From assembly GCA_030538415.1 (NCBI GenBank), contig JAUNTY010000003.1:20030-84029 (forward strand): 64,000 nt of DNA, in the 5' to 3' direction. The DNA comes from Neisseria sp. Its GTDB lineage: Bacteria > Pseudomonadota > Gammaproteobacteria > Burkholderiales > Neisseriaceae. Within the stretch, counting starts at the first letter, position 1. The number at the start of each line of letters is the position of its first letter. The notes beneath the pieces are model-generated. The model had not been told where the DNA came from. It was given only the letters and a program-made list of their open reading frames with translations, and searched no databases. Position numbers and translations under genes: made by a program. Positions 12,450-61,674 of the stretch are shown here, piece by piece.

Positions 12450-12521
12450 TATAGTCGAAGAAATTAGTTTCTGCTACGGCGTTGGCTCGCCTTGTATCAG
12501 AATCTAATTTCTCCGACTATA
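12450..12521. repeat. Family A Correia-like element, short form (~72 bp)
   Basis: TATAGTCGAAGAAATTAGTTTCTGCTACGGCGTTGGCTCGCCTTGTATCAGAATCTAATTTCTCCGACTATA. It lacks the central segment present in the long form. Confidence 0.75.
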
Positions 12522-14107: not shown

Positions 14108-14215
14108 TATAGTCGGAGCAATGAGATTCTGATACAAGGCGGCGAGCCGCAGACAGTACAGATAGTACGACAAGGCGAAACAACGCTGTAGCAGAAACTC
14201 ATTTCTTCGACTATA
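14108..14215. repeat. Family A Correia-like element, long form
   Basis: TATAGTCGGAGCAATGAGATTC...GAAACTCATTTCTTCGACTATA, abutting the ubiB start. Confidence 0.8.
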
Positions 14216-14827
14216 AAAAACGCCGCCTGTGCCGCCGATGCCCGATTATCAAAAGCAGCGGCCGCCCGGCGTGCAGCGGTAAAAAAACGGTGGCGGTTGG
14301 GCAGGTCAGTGCCGGAACAGATGATTTGGCAACCCGCCGGGCAAAGCGGCTGCACAGGCAGCTTCCTCCGCCTCGCAACCCGCCTTCCGGCCAACGGCAC
14401 CATGATACCATAGAAACAACCTGTCCCGATTTCATCCGCTCCGGCAAAAGCAGCCGATATCCGCCTGATATGCACACACAGGCAGAGACGTGAGCCTGTC
14501 GGCATTTGCAGCTTTGCATGCCCGCATTTCCCTGTCGCGGCGCCGGCATTTTAATATGCACAATATTTGATATTTCACCCGCTTCCTCTCCGCATCCGTG
14601 ATATACTTTAACAAAAATATAACGAGTGTCTTAATCGGAATGCATGTAAACTATGCACACAACATACAGCCATGCTATAATCCGCCGAAACACGCAAACA
14701 GCGTATAAATTTGATTCATGCAGCAAAGAATATTTTTCAGTCAGAAACCCCGACGAAACGCTTGATTAATAAGGCTTAGCCCTCTACCCTGACAACATCG
14801 GAACCCATCAAGCAGAGGCGGTGCATC

Positions 14828-15667
14828 ATGACCGAAAGCCAAAAAAAACTCAGTTTTGAATTTTTCCCCACGCGTACGCCGGAAGGGCGTGCCAAACAGG
14901 TGATTACACGGAAACAACTGAGCCAGTACAACCCCGAATTCTTCTCCTGCACCTCCGGCGCCGGCGGCTCCACCAAAGAAGGCACCATGCAGGCGATTGA
15001 AGATATTTTGAGCGAAGGCGTGGCCGCCGCGCCGCACCTGCCCTGCGTTGGCATGCAGCCCGAAGAAATCATCGGGCTCTTGCAGGAATACAAAGCAATG
15101 GGCGTGCGCCACCTGGTGGCATTGCGTGGCGACATCCCTTCCGGCGTCGGCGCAGGCATGGCCGGTTTGCGCTATGCCAACGAGCTGGTGGCGTTGGTGA
15201 AAAGCGAATTCGGCAGCGATTTCCACGTGGAAGTAGCCGCCTACCCCGAATACCACCCGCAGGCGCGCAGCGCCGAAGACGACATCAACAATTTCGTGCG
15301 CAAGGCCAAAGCAGGCGCAGATTCGGCGATTACACAATATTTTTACAATCCCGACGCCTACTTCCGCTTTGTCGACGATGTGCAGGGGCGCGGTGTGGAT
15401 ATTCCGATTATTCCCGGCATCATGCCGATTGCCAGCTTTTCCAAACTGGCGCGCTTTTCCGACACCTGCGGCGCCGAAATCCCGCGCTGGCTGCGGCTGA
15501 AACTGCAATCGTATGCCGACGACACCGCCGCCATCAAGGCGCTGGCGCTGGATGTGGTCACCGAAATGTGCGAACGCCTGCTGCGCGAAGGCGCGCCCAG
15601 CCTGCATTTTTACACGCTGAACCAGGCCGGTCTGGTTTCCACCGTCTGCCAGCGCTTGGGCTATTGA
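14828..15667 (+). CDS. metF: 5,10-methylenetetrahydrofolate reductase
   Basis: 279 aa aligning to E. coli MetF along its full length (SFEFFPTRT, AAPHLPC, HLVALRGD, ITQYFY, HFYTLNQAG). Confidence 0.9.
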   Translation: MTESQKKLSFEFFPTRTPEGRAKQVITRKQLSQYNPEFFSCTSGAGGSTKEGTMQAIEDILSEGVAAAPHLPCVGMQPEEIIGLLQEYKAMGVRHLVALRGDIPSGVGAGMAGLRYANELVALVKSEFGSDFHVEVAAYPEYHPQARSAEDDINNFVRKAKAGADSAITQYFYNPDAYFRFVDDVQGRGVDIPIIPGIMPIASFSKLARFSDTCGAEIPRWLRLKLQSYADDTAAIKALALDVVTEMCERLLREGAPSLHFYTLNQAGLVSTVCQRLGY

Positions 15668-15908: not shown

Positions 15909-15980
15909 TATAGTCGAAGAAATGAGTTTTTACTACGGCGTTGGCTCGCCTTGTATCAGAATCTCATTTCTCCGACTATA
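15909..15980. repeat. Family A Correia-like element, short form
   Basis: TATAGTCGAAGAAATGAGTTTTTACTACGGCGTTGGCTCGCCTTGTATCAGAATCTCATTTCTCCGACTATA. Confidence 0.75.
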
Positions 15981-18354: not shown

Positions 18355-18386
18355 TATAGTCGAAGAAATGAGTTTCTCCGACTATA
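18355..18386. repeat. Family A element reduced to its two inverted repeats (32 bp)
   Basis: TATAGTCGAAGAAATGAGTTTCTCCGACTATA, which is the left and right inverted repeats fused with no core. Confidence 0.6.
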
Positions 18387-18398
18387 GAATTGCACAGA

Positions 18399-18476: not shown

Positions 18477-18544
18477 AAGTTATAGAAAAAGCCGTCTGAA
18501 AGTGGGTTTCAGACGGCCTTTCTATGGCTTATCAGCAAGCAGGT

Positions 18545-22297: not shown

Positions 22298-22485
22298 GGT
22301 TTGCTCCTGTTGTGTGGGTTGATGGGTGCAGTATAGGGAGAAAGCATGACGGCTGATAGACAGGTGAAAGTGTATAGATTATTTCCTTTTTGGAAATAAT
22401 AAGCATGTCTATGTGTCATCTAAAAGGCCGTCTGAAAACCTTTTCAGACGGCCTTTGATGGATAAGCCTGCTTTTTTGAAAAATA

Positions 22486-23666: not shown

Positions 23667-24233
23667 TCAGACCGATTGATGAATTTGCGCCATCAGCCGC
23701 TCGGCATGCAGGCGCGCCCTGTTTTGCACATCGGCCAAATCGGCCTCGCTGCTCACGCCGGGCACATACATGATGCCGGTCGAACACACCGGCTGCTGCC
23801 AATCCATGCCGCATTGCACCGCGCTTTGCTGCAGCGGCGGCAAAAAGGCTTCCAGCGGATGGTTCATGGCACCGCCATAGCGGTATTGTTCGGCGGGCGC
23901 GCCGGCGGTCAGCGATACAGTCAGCTTTTTGCCCTTGAGCGCGGTGCCGCCGCTGCCGTAGGCAAAACCGTGCAGATACACTTCGTCTAAATAGGCTTTC
24001 ATCAGCGCGGGCAGCGCATACCAGTGCAGCGGAAACTGCCACACCACCACATCGGCGGCCACCAAAGCGGCCTGCTCGGCGGCCACGTCGATTTTGCGGT
24101 TTGCATACAATTCGTCGAGGCGGCGGATTTCGGCCGCATCGCCCAACCCTTGCTGCAAGGTGTCGAGAATCACCCGGTTGGCGGTGGATTGCTGCAAATC
24201 GGGGTGGCCGGAAATAACGAGGATTTTGCTCAT
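23667..24233 (-). CDS. NAD(P)H-dependent FMN oxidoreductase with a flavodoxin-like fold (NQO/KefF/MdaB-like)
   Basis: 188 aa. MSKILVISGHPDLQQS and WQFPLHWY are typical of the flavodoxin_2/NAD(P)H dehydrogenase (quinone) family. Confidence 0.75.
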   Translation of the reverse strand: MSKILVISGHPDLQQSTANRVILDTLQQGLGDAAEIRRLDELYANRKIDVAAEQAALVAADVVVWQFPLHWYALPALMKAYLDEVYLHGFAYGSGGTALKGKKLTVSLTAGAPAEQYRYGGAMNHPLEAFLPPLQQSAVQCGMDWQQPVCSTGIMYVPGVSSEADLADVQNRARLHAERLMAQIHQSV

Positions 24234-24379
24234 GATGGGGCTTTCTGGAAATAATTGAATGTCAACAGGCGCAGTATAGGCGTTTGGATTGATGGGTTTA
24301 AGACAGCTGCCGGTAGAAAGACCATTTCCGCACAGGAAGCAATCAGGCCGTCTGAAAACGCTTTCAGACGGCCTCTGCT

Positions 24380-24872
24380 TTATTCGGGCAGGCCTTCCAC
24401 AATGTAAGTGCGCGAATTGCCGGCGCGGTGGCGGATGGGGATGATTTTGCGGTATTCGGGCGAGTTGTACCAGGCTTGCGCTTGGGCGAGGCTGTCGAAC
24501 TTGATCATCACCAGCCGCCCCTGCGCGCCGAAGCCTTCTTTCACGTCGGCTTCGCCGCCGCGCACGATGTATAGTCGGAGAAATTAAGTTTTAATACAAG
24601 GCGGCGAGCCGCAGACAGTACAGGCAGTACGACAAGGCGAGCCAACGCCGTAGTAAAGCTTAATTTCTCCGACTATAGCGGCCGCTATACGGGCGGAAGG
24701 TATCTTCCACTTCGGCGCTGTAAGGGCGGATGGCCTCGCGGTCGGTGGCTTCGAATTCGGCCACATAATAAGCGGGGCTTGCCTTGGCTGCACCGGCGGG
24801 CGCGGCATGGGCGGCCAGCGGCAGGGCGGCTGCGGCCACTGCGGCGAAGGCAGACAAAAACAGTTTGGTCAT
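24380..24872 (-). pseudogene. DUF1330 family secreted protein gene disrupted by insertion of a 108-bp family A MITE
   Basis: The N-terminal piece (24660..24872: MTKLFLSAFAAVAAAALPLAAHA...PAYYVAEFEATDREAIRPYSGRY) and the C-terminal piece (24380..24565: ...RLVMIKFDSLAQAQAWYNSPEYRKI...) are in different frames and are separated by the element at 24570..24677. Deleting the element and keeping one TA restores a continuous DUF1330 ORF (…GRYIVRGGEADV…). Confidence 0.75.
24570..24677. repeat. Family A Correia-like element, long form, inserted at a TA inside the DUF1330 gene
   Basis: TATAGTCGGAGAAATTAAGTTTTAATACAAGGCGGCGAGCCGCAGACAGTACAGGCAGTACGACAAGGCGAGCCAACGCCGTAGTAAAGCTTAATTTCTCCGACTATA. Confidence 0.85.
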
Positions 24873-24878
24873 TTCAGA

Positions 24879-25304
24879 CTACTCCTTTATTTTATGGAAA
24901 ATCAGCGGCAGGGATTCGGCATCCAGGCTTTGCATGTCGGTCAGCTGCAGCGATTTCACCATGTGCGCGGTGCCGGTTTTGTAGTGCTGGAAGTGCGGCG
25001 ATCGGATATGGGCGTCATAGGCGGCCTGGTCAGCATAAATTTCCAGCAGGCGGATTTGGGCGGGCGCGTTTTGCTCGGCCATCGGCACAATCGCCAGCAC
25101 GCCCGGCTCGATTCTCATCGAAGCCGCCGCCTCTTCTTTCAGCATGGCATAATATTCGGCGCGGTATTGTGGGAAAATTTCGATTTCGGCCATGCGCATC
25201 ATCATTTTACCGCTGCCGTTTTCAGGTTCGCCCGCCTTGTCGTGGGCAAAAACCGGCAGCGCCGCCAAAGCCAGCGCCAGCAGCAATCCTGCTTTTTTCA
25301 ACAT
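24879..25304 (-). CDS. Secreted antibiotic-biosynthesis-monooxygenase (ABM) domain protein
   Basis: 141 aa with signal peptide MLKKAGLLLALALAALPVFA and a ferredoxin-like ABM pattern (IEIF...EYY...HF..Y). Confidence 0.6.
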   Translation of the reverse strand: MLKKAGLLLALALAALPVFAHDKAGEPENGSGKMMMRMAEIEIFPQYRAEYYAMLKEEAAASMRIEPGVLAIVPMAEQNAPAQIRLLEIYADQAAYDAHIRSPHFQHYKTGTAHMVKSLQLTDMQSLDAESLPLIFHKIKE

Positions 25305-25333: not shown

Positions 25334-25441
25334 TATAGTCGAATAAATGAGCTTCTGCTACGGCGTTGGCTCGCCTTGCCGTACTATCTGTACTGTCTGC
25401 GGCTCGCCGCCTTGTATCAGAAGCTCATTTCTCCGACTATA
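25334..25441. repeat. Family A Correia-like element, long form (reverse orientation)
   Basis: TATAGTCGAATAAATGAGCTTCTGCTACGGCGTTGGCTCGCCTTGCCGTACTATCTGTACTGTCTGCGGCTCGCCGCCTTGTATCAGAAGCTCATTTCTCCGACTATA. Confidence 0.8.
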
Positions 25442-25530: not shown

Positions 25531-26430
25531 ATGCACAGCGCCATCTACGGCCAACTGACCGTATTTCACACCATCGCCGCGCAAGGCAGCATTTCCGGCG
25601 CGGCGCGCCAGCTCGAAATCGGCGCGCCTGCGGTGAGCAAATCGCTGAAGCTTTTGGAAGAACACATCGGCCTGCCGCTGTTTAACCGCACCACGCGCAA
25701 GCTGGAGCTGACCGAAGCGGGCGCGTTGCTGCTGGCGCGAACGGGCGAGGCGGTGCAGTCGCTGCAATATGCGGTGGAGAGCGTGCAGGATTTGGGCGAC
25801 ACGCCGCACGGCAGCGTGCGCATCACCGTGGCGCGGTTTGCCTACAAATGCATCCTGAAGCCGCTGCTGGCCGAATTCTGCCGCCAGTATCCCGAAATCC
25901 GGCTGGAAGTGTCGGTGTTTGACGGCACGGTCGATATTCTCGAACAAGGCTTCGATTTGGGCATCCGCTTCGGCGACCGCGTGGAAGAAGGCATGGTGGC
26001 GCGCCAACTGATGGCGCCGTTTAAAGAGGGCTTGTATGTGTCGCAGGCTTATCGCGACCAATACGGCCTGCCCGAAAGCCCCGCTGACCTGCCCGCACAC
26101 CGGCTCATCGGCTACCGCCTGATTACCGCCAACCGCATCCTGCCGCTGACGCTCGACAACCACGGCCAAGCGCTGGAAGTGGACATGCCCTGCCCGATAT
26201 TGGTCAACGACATCGGCGTGATGGCCGACGCGGTGCGCCAGGGTATCGGCATCGGCCGCCTGTTTGAACCGGTGGTGCAGCAATACGCCGACCGCGCCGA
26301 TTTTGTCCCGGTGTTGGCGGATTATTGGCAAAGCTATCCCGGCGTGTATCTCTATTACCTGCAAAACAGCCAGAAAGCCAAGCGCATCAGGGTGTTGATT
26401 GATTTCTTGCTGGCGCATCACGGCGGCTGA
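25531..26430 (+). CDS. LysR family transcriptional regulator
   Basis: N-terminal helix-turn-helix (LTVFHTIAAQGSISGAARQLEIGAPAVSKSLKLLEEHIG) and a C-terminal LysR substrate-binding domain. The start is set at MHSAIYG with an AAGGA Shine-Dalgarno sequence. Confidence 0.88.
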   Translation: MHSAIYGQLTVFHTIAAQGSISGAARQLEIGAPAVSKSLKLLEEHIGLPLFNRTTRKLELTEAGALLLARTGEAVQSLQYAVESVQDLGDTPHGSVRITVARFAYKCILKPLLAEFCRQYPEIRLEVSVFDGTVDILEQGFDLGIRFGDRVEEGMVARQLMAPFKEGLYVSQAYRDQYGLPESPADLPAHRLIGYRLITANRILPLTLDNHGQALEVDMPCPILVNDIGVMADAVRQGIGIGRLFEPVVQQYADRADFVPVLADYWQSYPGVYLYYLQNSQKAKRIRVLIDFLLAHHGG

Positions 26431-28693: not shown

Positions 28694-28792
28694 TTCGTCA
28701 TTCCCGCGCAGGCGGGAATCCAGAAGCCTGACATTTCCGTAATGTTTTCAAGGTTTCTGAAACTCGACGACTGGATTCCCGCCTGCGCGGGA
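28694..28792. repeat. Neisserial intergenic mosaic element bounded by two dRS3 repeats (ATTCCCN8GGGAAT)
   Basis: ATTCCCGCGCAGGCGGGAAT at about 28694 and ATTCCCGCCTGCGCGGGAAT at about 28773, in inverted orientation, flank about 60 bp. Confidence 0.7.
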
Positions 28793-28883
28793 ATGACGAA
28801 TCCTTGCGGATTCTGCCTACCTCAAGGAGAAATACATTTCTGAAAATCAAAAGATATTTCATTTGCTTATCCCGAACTCACGT

Positions 28884-29017: not shown

Positions 29018-29089
29018 TATAGTTGGAGAAATGAATTTCTGATACAAGGCGAGCCAACGCCATAGCAGAAACTCATTTCTCCGACTATA
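29018..29089. repeat. Family A element, short form
   Basis: TATAGTTGGAGAAATGAATTTCTGATACAAGGCGAGCCAACGCCATAGCAGAAACTCATTTCTCCGACTATA. Confidence 0.7.
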
Positions 29090-31487: not shown

Positions 31488-31892
31488 GAGACCTTTGCAA
31501 AATTCTTCTGCCCGTCGCGCCCGCGCAGGCGGGTGCCTAGTGCAAAGCGCGGCTTTGCTTGCCTGCCCATTTCGATTATTCCAAAAACCCAAGTTGAATC
31601 ATTGAGTTGTATAGTCGTTTCAATTTAGACTGAAACAAGGCAGCAAGCCGCAGGCAGTACAGATAGTACGACAAGGTGCAGCAACGCCGTAGCAGATATT
31701 AAGTTTAGCCACTATAGTACGGCTAGGCGAAGCAACGCTGTATCAAACTAACGGAACGACTATATTATTCCAAAAACCGAATTTGAATCATTGGGTTGTA
31801 TATTTTCAAACCTGGCAGGTTTGAGCTGAAGCTGCGCTTCAGACTGGGCACCCGCCTGCGCGGGTGCGACGGTTATTTTTTACAAAGGTCTC
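31488..31892. repeat. Composite repeat: a family B MITE carrying a nested family A-type element
   Basis: Family B ends GAGACCTTTGCAAAAT...GTCGCGCCCGCGCAGGCGGGTGCC at the left and ...CTGGGCACCCGCCTGCGCGGGTGCGACGGTTATTTTTTACAAAGGTCTC at the right. Inside, a TATAGTCGTTTCAATTTAG-type element (31610..31764) is flanked by a 37-bp direct duplication. Confidence 0.7.
31610..31764. repeat. Family A-type element, inverted-repeat variant 3 (TATAGTCGTTTC...), plus an adjoining half element
   Basis: Complete copy at 31610..31716 (…AGTTTAGCCACTATA), followed by a right-half copy ending AAACTAACGGAACGACTATA. Confidence 0.65.
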
Positions 31893-39563: not shown

Positions 39564-39783
39564 AGCCCTTTGCAAAACTCCCCTGCCTGTCGCACCCGCG
39601 CAGGCGGGTGCCTAGGGCAAAACGTAGTTTTGCTTGTCTGTCCATGTTTCTCTGATTCTAAAAATCTATTATGAATCATAATTTTGCGTGTTTTCAGGGT
39701 TGGCAAGTTTGAGCTGAAGCCTTGCTTCAGGCTGGGCACCCGCCTGCGCGGGTGCGACGGTTATTTTTTCGCAAAAGTCGCAG
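39564..39783. repeat. Family B MITE, full copy (~220 bp)
   Basis: GAGCCCTTTGCAAAACTCCCCTGCCTGTCGCACCCGCGCAGGCGGGTGCCTAGGGCAAAACG...GGCTGGGCACCCGCCTGCGCGGGTGCGACGGTTATTTTTTCGCAAAAGTCGCAG. Confidence 0.75.
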
Positions 39784-42053: not shown

Positions 42054-42161
42054 TATAGTCGGAGAAATTAGATTCTGATACAAGGCGGCGAGCCGCAGAC
42101 AGTACAGATAGTACGACAAGGCGAGCCAACGCCGTAGCAGAAACTCATTTCTTCGACTACA
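42054..42161. repeat. Family A Correia-like element, long form
   Basis: TATAGTCGGAGAAATTAGATTCTGATACAAGGCGGCGAGCCGCAGACAGTACAGATAGTACGACAAGGCGAGCCAACGCCGTAGCAGAAACTCATTTCTTCGACTACA. Confidence 0.8.
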
Positions 42162-51558: not shown

Positions 51559-51768
51559 TATAGTCAGGAAAATTAATTTTTATAGTCGTTTCGTTAGCTT
51601 GAGACAAGGCAGCAAGCCGCAGACAGTACAGATAGTACGGCAAGGCGCAGCAACGCTGTATCAAGCTAAATTGAAACGACTATAATACAAGGCGGCGAGC
51701 CGCAGACAGTACACGCAGTACGGCTAGGCGAGCCAACGCAGTAGCAAAAGTTAAGTTTCCTGACTATA
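51559..51768. repeat. Nested MITEs: a family A-type element (variant TATAGTCAGGAAA inverted repeats) interrupted by a variant-3 element
   Basis: The outer element runs TATAGTCAGGAAAATTAATTTT, then the inner TATAGTCGTTTCGTTAGCTTGAG...TTGAAACGACTATA (51581..51684), then AATACAAGGCGGCGAGCCGCAGACAGTACACGCAGTACGGCTAGGCGAGCCAACGCAGTAGCAAAAGTTAAGTTTCCTGACTATA. Confidence 0.7.
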
Positions 51769-58124: not shown

Positions 58125-58340
58125 CTGTCCTTTGCAAAATTCCCTGCTCGTCGCACCCGCGCAGGCGGGTGCCCAGTGCAAAGCGTAGCTTTGCTTGTCT
58201 GCCCATTTTTCTGATTCTGAAAAATCAAGCAAAATCAATAAGTTGATTATTACCAAAGCTGATAAATTTAAGATGTCACCATGCTTCAGACTGAGCACCC
58301 GCCTGCGCGGGCGCGACGGTTATTTTTTTACAAAGGTCTC
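58125..58340. repeat. Family B MITE, full copy (~216 bp)
   Basis: CCTCTGTCCTTTGCAAAATTCCCTGCTCGTCGCACCCGCGCAGGCGGGTGCCCAGTGCAAAGCG...CAGACTGAGCACCCGCCTGCGCGGGCGCGACGGTTATTTTTTTACAAAGGTCTC. Confidence 0.75.
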
Positions 58341-60761: not shown

Positions 60762-60869
60762 TATAGTGAAAAAACTTAATATCTGCTACGGCGTTGCTGC
60801 ACCTTGCCGTACTATCTGTACTGTCTGCGGTTTGCTGCCTTGTATCAAATATTAAGTTTTTCCACTATA
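60762..60869. repeat. Family A-type element, inverted-repeat variant 4 (TATAGTGAAAAAACTTAATAT...)
   Basis: TATAGTGAAAAAACTTAATATCTGCTACGGCGTTGCTGCACCTTGCCGTACTATCTGTACTGTCTGCGGTTTGCTGCCTTGTATCAAATATTAAGTTTTTCCACTATA. Confidence 0.75.
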
Positions 60870-60972
60870 GTCAATTAAAATGAAAACAATTCAAGGCGGC
60901 GGGCGGAAGACAGCAAACTCTGTGCGGCAAAACGAGGAAACGCTGGGGTGTTTCTTATTTTAATTGACTATA
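60866..60972. repeat. Family A-type element, inverted-repeat variant 5 (TATAGTCAATTAAAATG...), sharing its terminal TA with the preceding element
   Basis: TATAGTCAATTAAAATGAAAACAATTCAAGGCGGCGGGCGGAAGACAGCAAACTCTGTGCGGCAAAACGAGG...TTTCTTATTTTAATTGACTATA. Confidence 0.6.
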
Positions 60973-61216: not shown

Positions 61217-61436
61217 GAGACCTTGGCAAAAAAATAACCGTCGCACCCGCGCAGGCGGGTGCCCAGTCTGAAGCAAGGCTTCAGCTTAAACTTGCCAGCC
61301 TTGATAATATTCAACCCAATGATTCATATTGATTTTTTGAAATCAAAAAGATGGGGGGACAAGCAAAGCCGCGCTTTGCACTAAGCACCCGCCTGCGCGG
61401 GTGCGACGTACAGAGGAATTTTGCAAAGGCCTCAGC
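61217..61436. repeat. Family B MITE, full copy in reverse orientation
   Basis: GAGACCTTGGCAAAAAAATAACCGTCGCACCCGCGCAGGCGGGTGCCCAGTCTGAAGC...GCTTTGCACTAAGCACCCGCCTGCGCGGGTGCGACGTACAGAGGAATTTTGCAAAGGCCTC. Confidence 0.7.
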
Positions 61437-61466: not shown

Positions 61467-61674
61467 TATAGTCGTTCCGTTAGATTGATACAAGGCAGCA
61501 AGCCGCAGACAGTACAGATATAGTGAAAAAACTTAATATCTGCTACGGCGTTGCTGCACCTTGCCGTACTATCTGTATTGTCTGCGGTTTGCTGTCTTGT
61601 ATCAAATATTAAGTTTTTCCACTACAGTACGGCAAGGCGCAGCAACGCTGTATCAAACTAACGGAACGACTATA
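61467..61674. repeat. Nested MITEs: a variant-3 family A element with a variant-4 element inserted at its central TA
   Basis: The outer element runs TATAGTCGTTCCGTTAGATTGATACAAGGCAGCAAGCCGCAGACAGTACAGA, then the inner copy TATAGTGAAAAAACTTAATAT...TTTTTCCACTACA (61519..61626), then GTACGGCAAGGCGCAGCAACGCTGTATCAAACTAACGGAACGACTATA. Confidence 0.75.

Follow-up and report, generated by a model that had tools for sequence, protein, structure and literature searches.

A DUF1330 gene of an uncultured Neisseria split by a 108-bp Correia-type miniature inverted-repeat element

The stretch of DNA considered here, referred to as the window, comprises 64,000 nucleotides of an uncultured Neisseria sp. (assembly GCA_030538415.1, contig JAUNTY010000003.1, positions 20,030 to 84,029 of the forward strand). 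On its minus strand, at 24380..24872, the window holds a gene for a protein of the DUF1330 family, which is split by a 108-bp transposable element of the miniature inverted-repeat class (MITE) at 24570..24677. We assign a probability of roughly 0.9 to the reading that a MITE of the Correia lineage, i.e. a relative of the Correia repeat enclosed elements (CREE), inserted at a TA dinucleotide, duplicated this target and split the DUF1330 gene. A first-pass annotation of the sequence had described the same disruption, although it did not name the family of the element, and all of its checkable coordinates hold.

The split gene and its reconstruction

As it stands, the DUF1330 gene is a pseudogene in two parts. 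The 5' half, codons 1-65 at 24678..24872, comprises the signal-peptide-like N-terminus MTKLFLSAFAAVAAAALPLAAHA|A and the opening third of the domain. The 3' half at 24380..24569 runs from the last base of codon 66 through codon 128 and the stop, and it includes the conserved domain segment IVRGGEADVKEGFG…NSRTYIVEG. The 5' open reading frame (ORF; 24660..24872, 70 aa, ATG at 24872) encodes MTKLFLSAFAAVAAAALPLAAHAAPAGAAKASPAYYVAEFEATDREAIRPYSAEVEDTFRPYSGRY and then enters the element by four codons, ending in SRRN* from foreign sequence (…GRYSRRN*). The 3' ORF (24380..24565), encoding …RGGEADVKEGFGAQGRLVMIKFDSLAQAQAWYNSPEYRKIIPIRHRAGNSRTYIVEGLPE, is read in another frame, and the listing of ORFs thereby shows the two halves in different frames on either side of the element, as had been claimed.

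Excision in silico of 106 bp, corresponding to the element minus one TA, gave one ORF of 128 aa in all three equivalent registers, including …GRYIVRGGEADV… and …KFDSLAQAQAWYNSPEYRKI…, and the frame stayed broken after removal of 104 or 108 bp. The exact reconstruction put forward in the first-pass annotation is thus borne out. The element begins and ends with TA, and the ORF is restored only when the element minus one of these two dinucleotides is removed, as expected of a TA target-site duplication. The insertion point is the TA within the Tyr66 codon (TAC), after codon 65, the empty site would read CGCACGATGTAGCGGCCGC, and no additional stop or frameshift is present across the 128 codons of the excised gene. 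Within the element, the left terminal inverted repeat TATAGTCGGAGAAATTAAGTTTTAATAC (24570..24597) and the right one, GTAGTAAAGCTTAATTTCTCCGACTATA (24650..24677), both given on the plus strand, are 28 nt each and 93% complementary.

Against Pfam PF07045 (DUF1330) the joined protein scored 96.9 bits (E = 9.2e-28; gathering cut-off 23 bits) over profile positions 1-94 of 94. The domain is complete only in the joined sequence, and the assignment of the rejoined ORF to DUF1330 stands. Of 181 relatives retrieved from 5.8 billion protein clusters, nearly all are single proteins of ~110-140 aa, and more than 120 homologues are single ORFs of ~118-135 aa; among the 120 homologues listed, every one save the window's own stub is a single protein (~88-182 aa) with the whole domain. 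When the joined protein is aligned with 10 intact relatives, its junction lies in the conserved block GR[YF]IVRGG, which has no gaps, and of 47 columns without variation among these relatives 46 are kept (13/13 before the junction and 33/34 after it), with Q106R as the sole deviation.

The nearest intact orthologue is found in Uruburuella testudinis, the nearest named relative within the Neisseriaceae, where the gene is continuous and uninterrupted at the insertion site. The excised window gene aligns to the Uruburuella DNA with no gaps, GAT-AA-AGCGG there corresponding to GAT-GTA-GCGG in the window, and the two are 83% identical over 96 codons. The differences fall 12/10/26 on codon positions 1/2/3 (26 of 48 at the third), and this distribution indicates that most of the divergence from Uruburuella accumulated under purifying selection. 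The locus is, in combination, an insertional pseudogene: the insert brings a premature stop after SRRN into a gene that is continuous in Uruburuella and in more than 100 others. Frame restoration, the full-domain match and the gap-free alignment at the junction all support the clean insertional inactivation described earlier.

The reconstructed protein also matches PDB 2FIU from Agrobacterium (E = 2e-11 over residues 33-126) as well as 3LO3. These solved proteins are 94-99 residues long, whereas the subfamily in the window adds a signal-peptide-like N-terminal extension of ~30 residues, which reads MTK-LFLSAFAAVAAAALPLA-AHA|A, i.e. MTK followed by a hydrophobic run and an AXA-type motif. Comparable hydrophobic N-termini precede the domain in all 10 aligned relatives. 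As the extension is common to the relatives and missing from the solved, cytoplasmic-type structures, the native DUF1330 protein may be secreted. No function for DUF1330 was found in the literature searched, in the solved structures or in NCBIfam.

Consequence, age and alternative explanations

The course of events that we propose begins with a non-autonomous 108-bp copy of the short-form Correia/CREE type (also termed Neisseria miniature insertion sequence, NEMIS), presumably mobilised in trans by a transposase, which would have inserted at the TA in the Tyr66 codon and duplicated it. The net insertion of 106 bp shifts the frame, and translation from the native start now stops four codons into the element to give a 70-aa stub consisting of the putative signal peptide and about one third of the domain, with the remaining 62 codons left without a start or an export signal. 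Since DUF1330 is a single alpha+beta unit of ~94 residues, neither piece should fold, and the function of the gene would be lost. Polar effects should be small, as DUF1330 is the last gene before a hairpin. By analogy with canonical elements, the hairpin of the inserted copy may also destabilise, via RNase III, the mRNA shared with the upstream ABM-family gene described below and lower the level of ABM mRNA. The insertion is probably recent in evolutionary terms, given that the DUF1330 gene has no further lesion.

Several points weigh against this reading. No same-species empty site was found among species-representative genomes, metagenome contigs or the protein database searched. The window is drawn from one metagenome-assembled genome (MAG). 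Only one other assembly, the Logan contigs of SRR24915824, has flanking genes identical to these, and it breaks at the MITE and at the DNA uptake sequence (DUS) repeats, so that neither an independent assembly nor a read set spans the junctions. The word recent draws only on missing decay, which has limited power in a gene of 128 codons. The operational definition of a Correia element, a 26-bp repeat that agrees with one of four canonical variants within three mismatches (Marri 2010, Roberts 2016), failed in the window, where the minimum at any TATA-starting site was seven mismatches. Finally, a mobilising transposase was not identified.

An insertion that is instead old and fixed, the gene having long been a dead relic in the lineage, is unlikely, albeit with some evidence in its favour. 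The 24570 copy is only 87-88% identical to the closest copies in the window, and the searches turned up no intact allele in any Neisseria. A close DUF1330 copy, intact or not, was absent from every other Neisseria genome, metagenome contig and protein cluster searched, and genome contigs, metagenome contigs, a 5.8-billion-protein database, exact-protein look-ups for both halves and three neighbours, and cluster membership gave nothing above ~81% identity. Two of the best intact homologues (P0004 and P0001) were ruled out as Neisseriaceae sequences, as their contigs are without any DUS. Conversely, a long-dead gene sits poorly with 128 codons that hold no other frameshift or stop, with the retention of all but one of the invariant columns, and with the enrichment of third-position differences relative to Uruburuella. 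The search for a closer sister copy of the element covered the 64 kb of the window, and the lineage appears barely sampled, since all neighbouring proteins checked are singletons at 90% clustering.

A regulatory or switching role, in which the element would act as a promoter, an RNase III site or a terminator-like hairpin on the ABM and oxidoreductase genes, or would switch DUF1330 through precise excision, appears quite improbable. Canonical Correia elements carry promoters and yield transcripts that are cut by RNase III (reviews; Snyder 2009), the hairpin predicted for the transcript of the 24570 copy is strong (-54 kcal/mol, z = -6.4), and a second copy of the family lies in the ABM/LysR promoter region. 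However, no promoter-like site turned up at the 24570 copy, or reading out of it, when consensus matches were scanned for, and the element lies within the last gene of an apparent bicistron, where there is little downstream to regulate. Neither an excision product nor a polymorphism was observed, and an insertion into coding sequence is most simply a loss.

It is very unlikely that the split arose in assembly or binning, the repeat having been put there by the assembler or by consensus calling, or that it reflects a minority allele in a population that mostly carries the intact gene. The match of the window to a single 98-kb MAG contig, the great abundance of the repeat family and the breaks of the Logan contigs at repeats would be compatible with such an origin. 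Mis-assembly, however, joins unrelated loci and would not place a complete TA-flanked element exactly inside one codon, nor would deletion of 106 bp then restore a conserved protein with no residue gained or lost. The element is, moreover, shorter than typical reads, which should therefore span it. The view that each ORF is a small gene in its own right, as listed in the public annotation (PGAP, locus tags Q4G28_) under MDO5638476.1 (70 aa, hypothetical, identical to the 5' ORF) and MDO5638475.1 (61 aa, DUF1330 domain-containing, 24380..24565), is refuted by the 120 listed homologues, single whole-domain proteins bar the window's stub, by the element-derived codons (SRRN*) at the end of the 70-aa ORF, by a Pfam domain that is complete only when the halves are joined, and by the continuous gene in Uruburuella.

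The insertion of a Correia-type element into an intact DUF1330 gene accordingly has a direct bearing on the public record, in which MDO5638475.1 and MDO5638476.1 are to be corrected to fragments of one pseudogene.

Gene neighbourhood and the repeat family in the window

Upstream of the DUF1330 gene, on the same strand, lies an ABM-family gene (24879..25304, minus strand; Pfam PF03992, E = 1.5e-12) of the dimeric alpha/beta-barrel type, likewise with a signal-peptide-like N-terminus. Its stop codon ends 6 nt before the DUF1330 start, a spacing that makes co-transcription of the two genes probable. A LysR-family regulator (25531..26430, plus strand; Pfam HTH_1 and LysR_substrate; MDO5638478.1) is transcribed divergently, and an NAD(P)H-dependent oxidoreductase of the Flavodoxin_2 family (23667..24233, minus strand), KefF-like although under the NCBIfam cut-off, follows downstream. 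The search of NCBIfam gave no name for either the DUF1330 or the ABM protein; both come from dimeric alpha/beta-barrel-type families.

The Uruburuella locus holds LysR, DUF1330, Flavodoxin_2 and ABM genes together, with the LysR protein 69% identical and in the same position and the Flavodoxin_2 protein 70% identical and encoded after DUF1330. Related loci of 6 kb or longer number 51; next to DUF1330 they have an ABM homologue in 43 cases, a LysR gene in 27 and a Flavodoxin_2 gene in 19. The adjacency of ABM and DUF1330 spans the Proteobacteria, often with genes for aldo-keto reductase, Flavodoxin_2, cupin, CMD, YCII or DUF2255 proteins in the vicinity, and other relatives are found in the company of short-chain dehydrogenases, cupins and aldo-keto reductases. 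The LysR-associated cluster in which the first-pass annotation had placed the disruption is thus supported by synteny with Uruburuella and the related loci. That the cluster is accessory is plausible, its taxonomic distribution being sparse, and the LysR, ABM, DUF1330 and oxidoreductase genes presumably form a periplasmic or redox detoxification module. The lineage would have lost one partner of the conserved ABM and DUF1330 pair in a neighbourhood of redox enzymes.

A second copy of the MITE family (25334..25441) occupies the divergent intergenic region between ABM and LysR, 30 nt upstream of the ABM start. At this copy a promoter-like arrangement, TTTATA-18-TATAGT, was recognised by consensus match only, the terminal TATAGT of the element constituting the -10 box. 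Regulation of the module may thus also have been rewired by the 25334 copy, independently of the disruption of DUF1330. The two copies are inverted relative to each other and 85% complementary over 108 nt, and they flank 656 bp occupied by the ABM gene together with the 5' half of DUF1330. The pair is a composite-like arrangement or a possible substrate for inversion.

Past the 3' end of the disrupted gene, 6 nt beyond the DUF1330 stop, the inverted DUS pair AGGCCGTCTGAAA / TTTCAGACGGCCT (24345..24374) is a possible transcript-end hairpin, as a candidate only and with a T-tail on the plus strand only. The window as a whole, with a GC content of 55.6%, contains 110 DUS (GCCGTCTGAA), 94 of them AG-prefixed (AGGCCGTCTGAA). 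They often occur as inverted pairs after genes, as at 24345..24374, 22425..22454 and 18486..18519.

The MITE family is abundant throughout the 64 kb. The terminal repeat was matched 14 times and the core 16 times, with 0.00 matches expected in both cases, and BLAST together with a profile search gave ~25 copies or fragments, amounting to ~2.3 kb or 3.6% of the window. About 14 copies are full-length (98-108 bp, mostly 106-108 bp). Three 72-bp copies are internally deleted (12450..12521, 15909..15980 and 29018..29089), and a 32-bp mini-derivative at 18356..18387, seen as a solo repeat match at 18368, retains only the fused outer halves of the repeat. Abutting or nested copies at 31610..31747, 51581..51768, 60762..60972 and 61467..61657 are apparently insertions of one element into another or tandem remnants. 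The bounding repeat of the family is TATAGTCGGAGAAAT. Of the copies bounded by it, 17 were examined; TATA stands at both ends in 15, and one end has changed in those at 42054 (ACA) and 61519 (TGTA). No larger repeat-bounded, and hence potentially autonomous, element was found in the window.

Among these 17 copies the one at 24570 is the only intragenic one. Long frames that span the copies at 14108, 15672, 42054 and 53080 were considered as further disrupted genes and rejected as artefacts of the stop-to-stop spanning-frame test, which is noisy at 56% GC; the real genes, among them ubiB-like and dapA-like ones, start beyond the junctions.

Across the 14 full-length copies the terminal arms covary. 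Both sides have changed in 13 of the 28 pairs, a number reached in none of 500 shuffles, the arms of each copy remain complementary to one another, and the covariation collapses when the partners are slid as a control. It could stem from subfamily descent, from selection on the hairpin or from a templating mechanism.

Searches outside Neisseria returned one full 108-bp copy in Uruburuella testudinis (CP091508.1; L083:2845-2952), with TATAGTGGAATAAAG… ends, at a distance of ~1 kb from LysR in the orthologous module. On this sequence match, Correia-type elements extend to a second genus of the Neisseriaceae, and the diverged family thus reaches slightly beyond Neisseria. Phage records gave no match, and five pattern matches in viral contigs were not elements. 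The core and repeat sequences, when searched in literature text, gave only chance primer matches.

The window also holds repeats of another kind. An inverted pair of 205 nt, 81% complementary (58136..58340 and 61217..61421), flanks ~2.9 kb with tRNA-Asp, tRNA-Val and a cation:proton antiporter gene. Within the pair is a further family of repeats centred on GCACCCGCGCAGGCGGGTGC, with dRS3-like ATTCCCGCGCAGGCGGGAAT units, which is also found at 28694..28800, 31512..31555 and 39589..39615.

Relation to Correia elements and to RUP

The gonococcal comparison made use of two 2.17-Mb N. gonorrhoeae chromosomes that are filed as plasmids in PLSDB (NZ_CP119140.1 and NZ_CP119142.1). Positions 13-83 of the element have 40 or more matches per chromosome at ~85% identity. 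A genuine gonococcal CREE of 105 bp, taken from one of the two, runs collinear with the element of the window, the 27-nt core ACAAGGCGGCGAGCCGCAGACAGTACA being identical. The match is close over AAGGCGAG-CAACGCCGTA, and the outermost TATAGT…CTATA is common to both. Further points of likeness are a non-coding MITE structure with long terminal inverted repeats and duplication of a TA target, a multi-copy and mainly intergenic distribution with occasional gene disruption, and asymmetric inner ends, …ACAA and …TACGG. In CREE these ends read …CAGGACAA and …CGGTACGG, and in the window consensus the corresponding pair is …CTGATACAAGG and …CTGCTACGGCG (reverse complement reading). The length classes likewise correspond, with 103-108 and 72 bp in the window against 104-108 and 69-73 bp for CREE; the 153-157 bp class, the long form with a site for integration host factor (IHF), was not seen in the 64 kb. 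The three CREE length classes, the target duplication and the mainly intergenic location are described by Snyder 2009 (PMC2649163), and the asymmetric core and features also by Roberts 2016 and Delihas 2008.

The difference resides in the middle of the inverted repeat, which has diverged and reads TATAGTCGGAGAAATTAG… in the window as compared to TATAGTGGATTAA(CAAAAA/ATTTAA)… in CREE. The 24570 copy needs 8-11 edits to reach the canonical 26-bp repeat, and standard CREE searches would miss the family on account of this divergence. By its sequence the element is a diverged Correia-type subfamily and not a canonical CREE. Commensal or uncultured Neisseria hence carry Correia-type elements beyond the standard patterns, and CREE counts in non-pathogens may be too low, as the repeats have drifted past those patterns.

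A second system of comparison is RUP, a 107-bp MITE of S. pneumoniae, which the element resembles in its length of ~107 bp, terminal inverted repeats, TA duplication and hairpin-forming transcript. RUP targets TA, and its mobilisation by IS630-Spn1 has been proposed; its host belongs to a phylum other than that of Neisseria. In the literature searched no sequence link between RUP and Correia was found. An element of ~105 bp with TATAGTC…GACTATA ends is, on the other hand, present on the Streptococcus suis BM407 plasmid pBM407 (NC_012923.1, ~14790-14894; L093:1484-1588), where its neighbours are an IS1216 transposase gene and addA. It can be aligned from end to end with the MITE of the window and a gonococcal CREE, 60 of 108 columns being invariant in four sequences. 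The pBM407 element may be RUP-like, and for Correia a link to IS630 is only a hint.

The family density of ~1 copy per 2.5 kb, its invisibility to the canonical patterns, the covariation of its arms and the insertion into an undecayed, conserved gene could together be taken to suggest that the subfamily is transposing now or did so very recently, and that, if so, this genome, along with the possibly RUP-like pBM407 element, could point to the Correia transposase; this we regard as a tentative and rather doubtful proposition. The clean filled site with its exact TA duplication does support mobility of the subfamily. Snyder 2009 (PMC2649163) gives the mobilising mechanism of Correia elements as undetermined.

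The insertion is a fresh instance of a documented phenomenon, CREE insertion into genes being ordinary in the genus, and reviews count gene disruption among the recognised effects of CREE. New are the particular gene that was hit and its host, the divergence of the repeat subtype, the high density of copies in this stretch and a public annotation that has yet to be corrected. The meningococcal genome measures ~2.2 Mb, corresponding to about one CREE per 9 kb, and the density of the MITE in the window is several-fold higher. The meningococcal count behind this figure is 249 CREE per genome (Roberts 2016). In gonococci, 8 coding sequences are disrupted among ~125 CREE (Snyder 2009, PMC2649163), and the intragenic share in the window, 1 of 17, is about this proportion. 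Published cases of disruption by CREE include NMB0397, cvaB and NGO0243 (Snyder 2009). Gene-internal CREE of N. gonorrhoeae and N. meningitidis are strain- or lineage-specific, which has been read as a sign of mobility (Snyder, Cole & Pallen 2009, Table 3, PMC2649163). The present case differs from those inactivations in the gene, DUF1330, and in the host, which is an uncultured member of Neisseria and uses the AG-DUS dialect, and here the mobility is read from the TA duplication together with intact orthologues in another genus.

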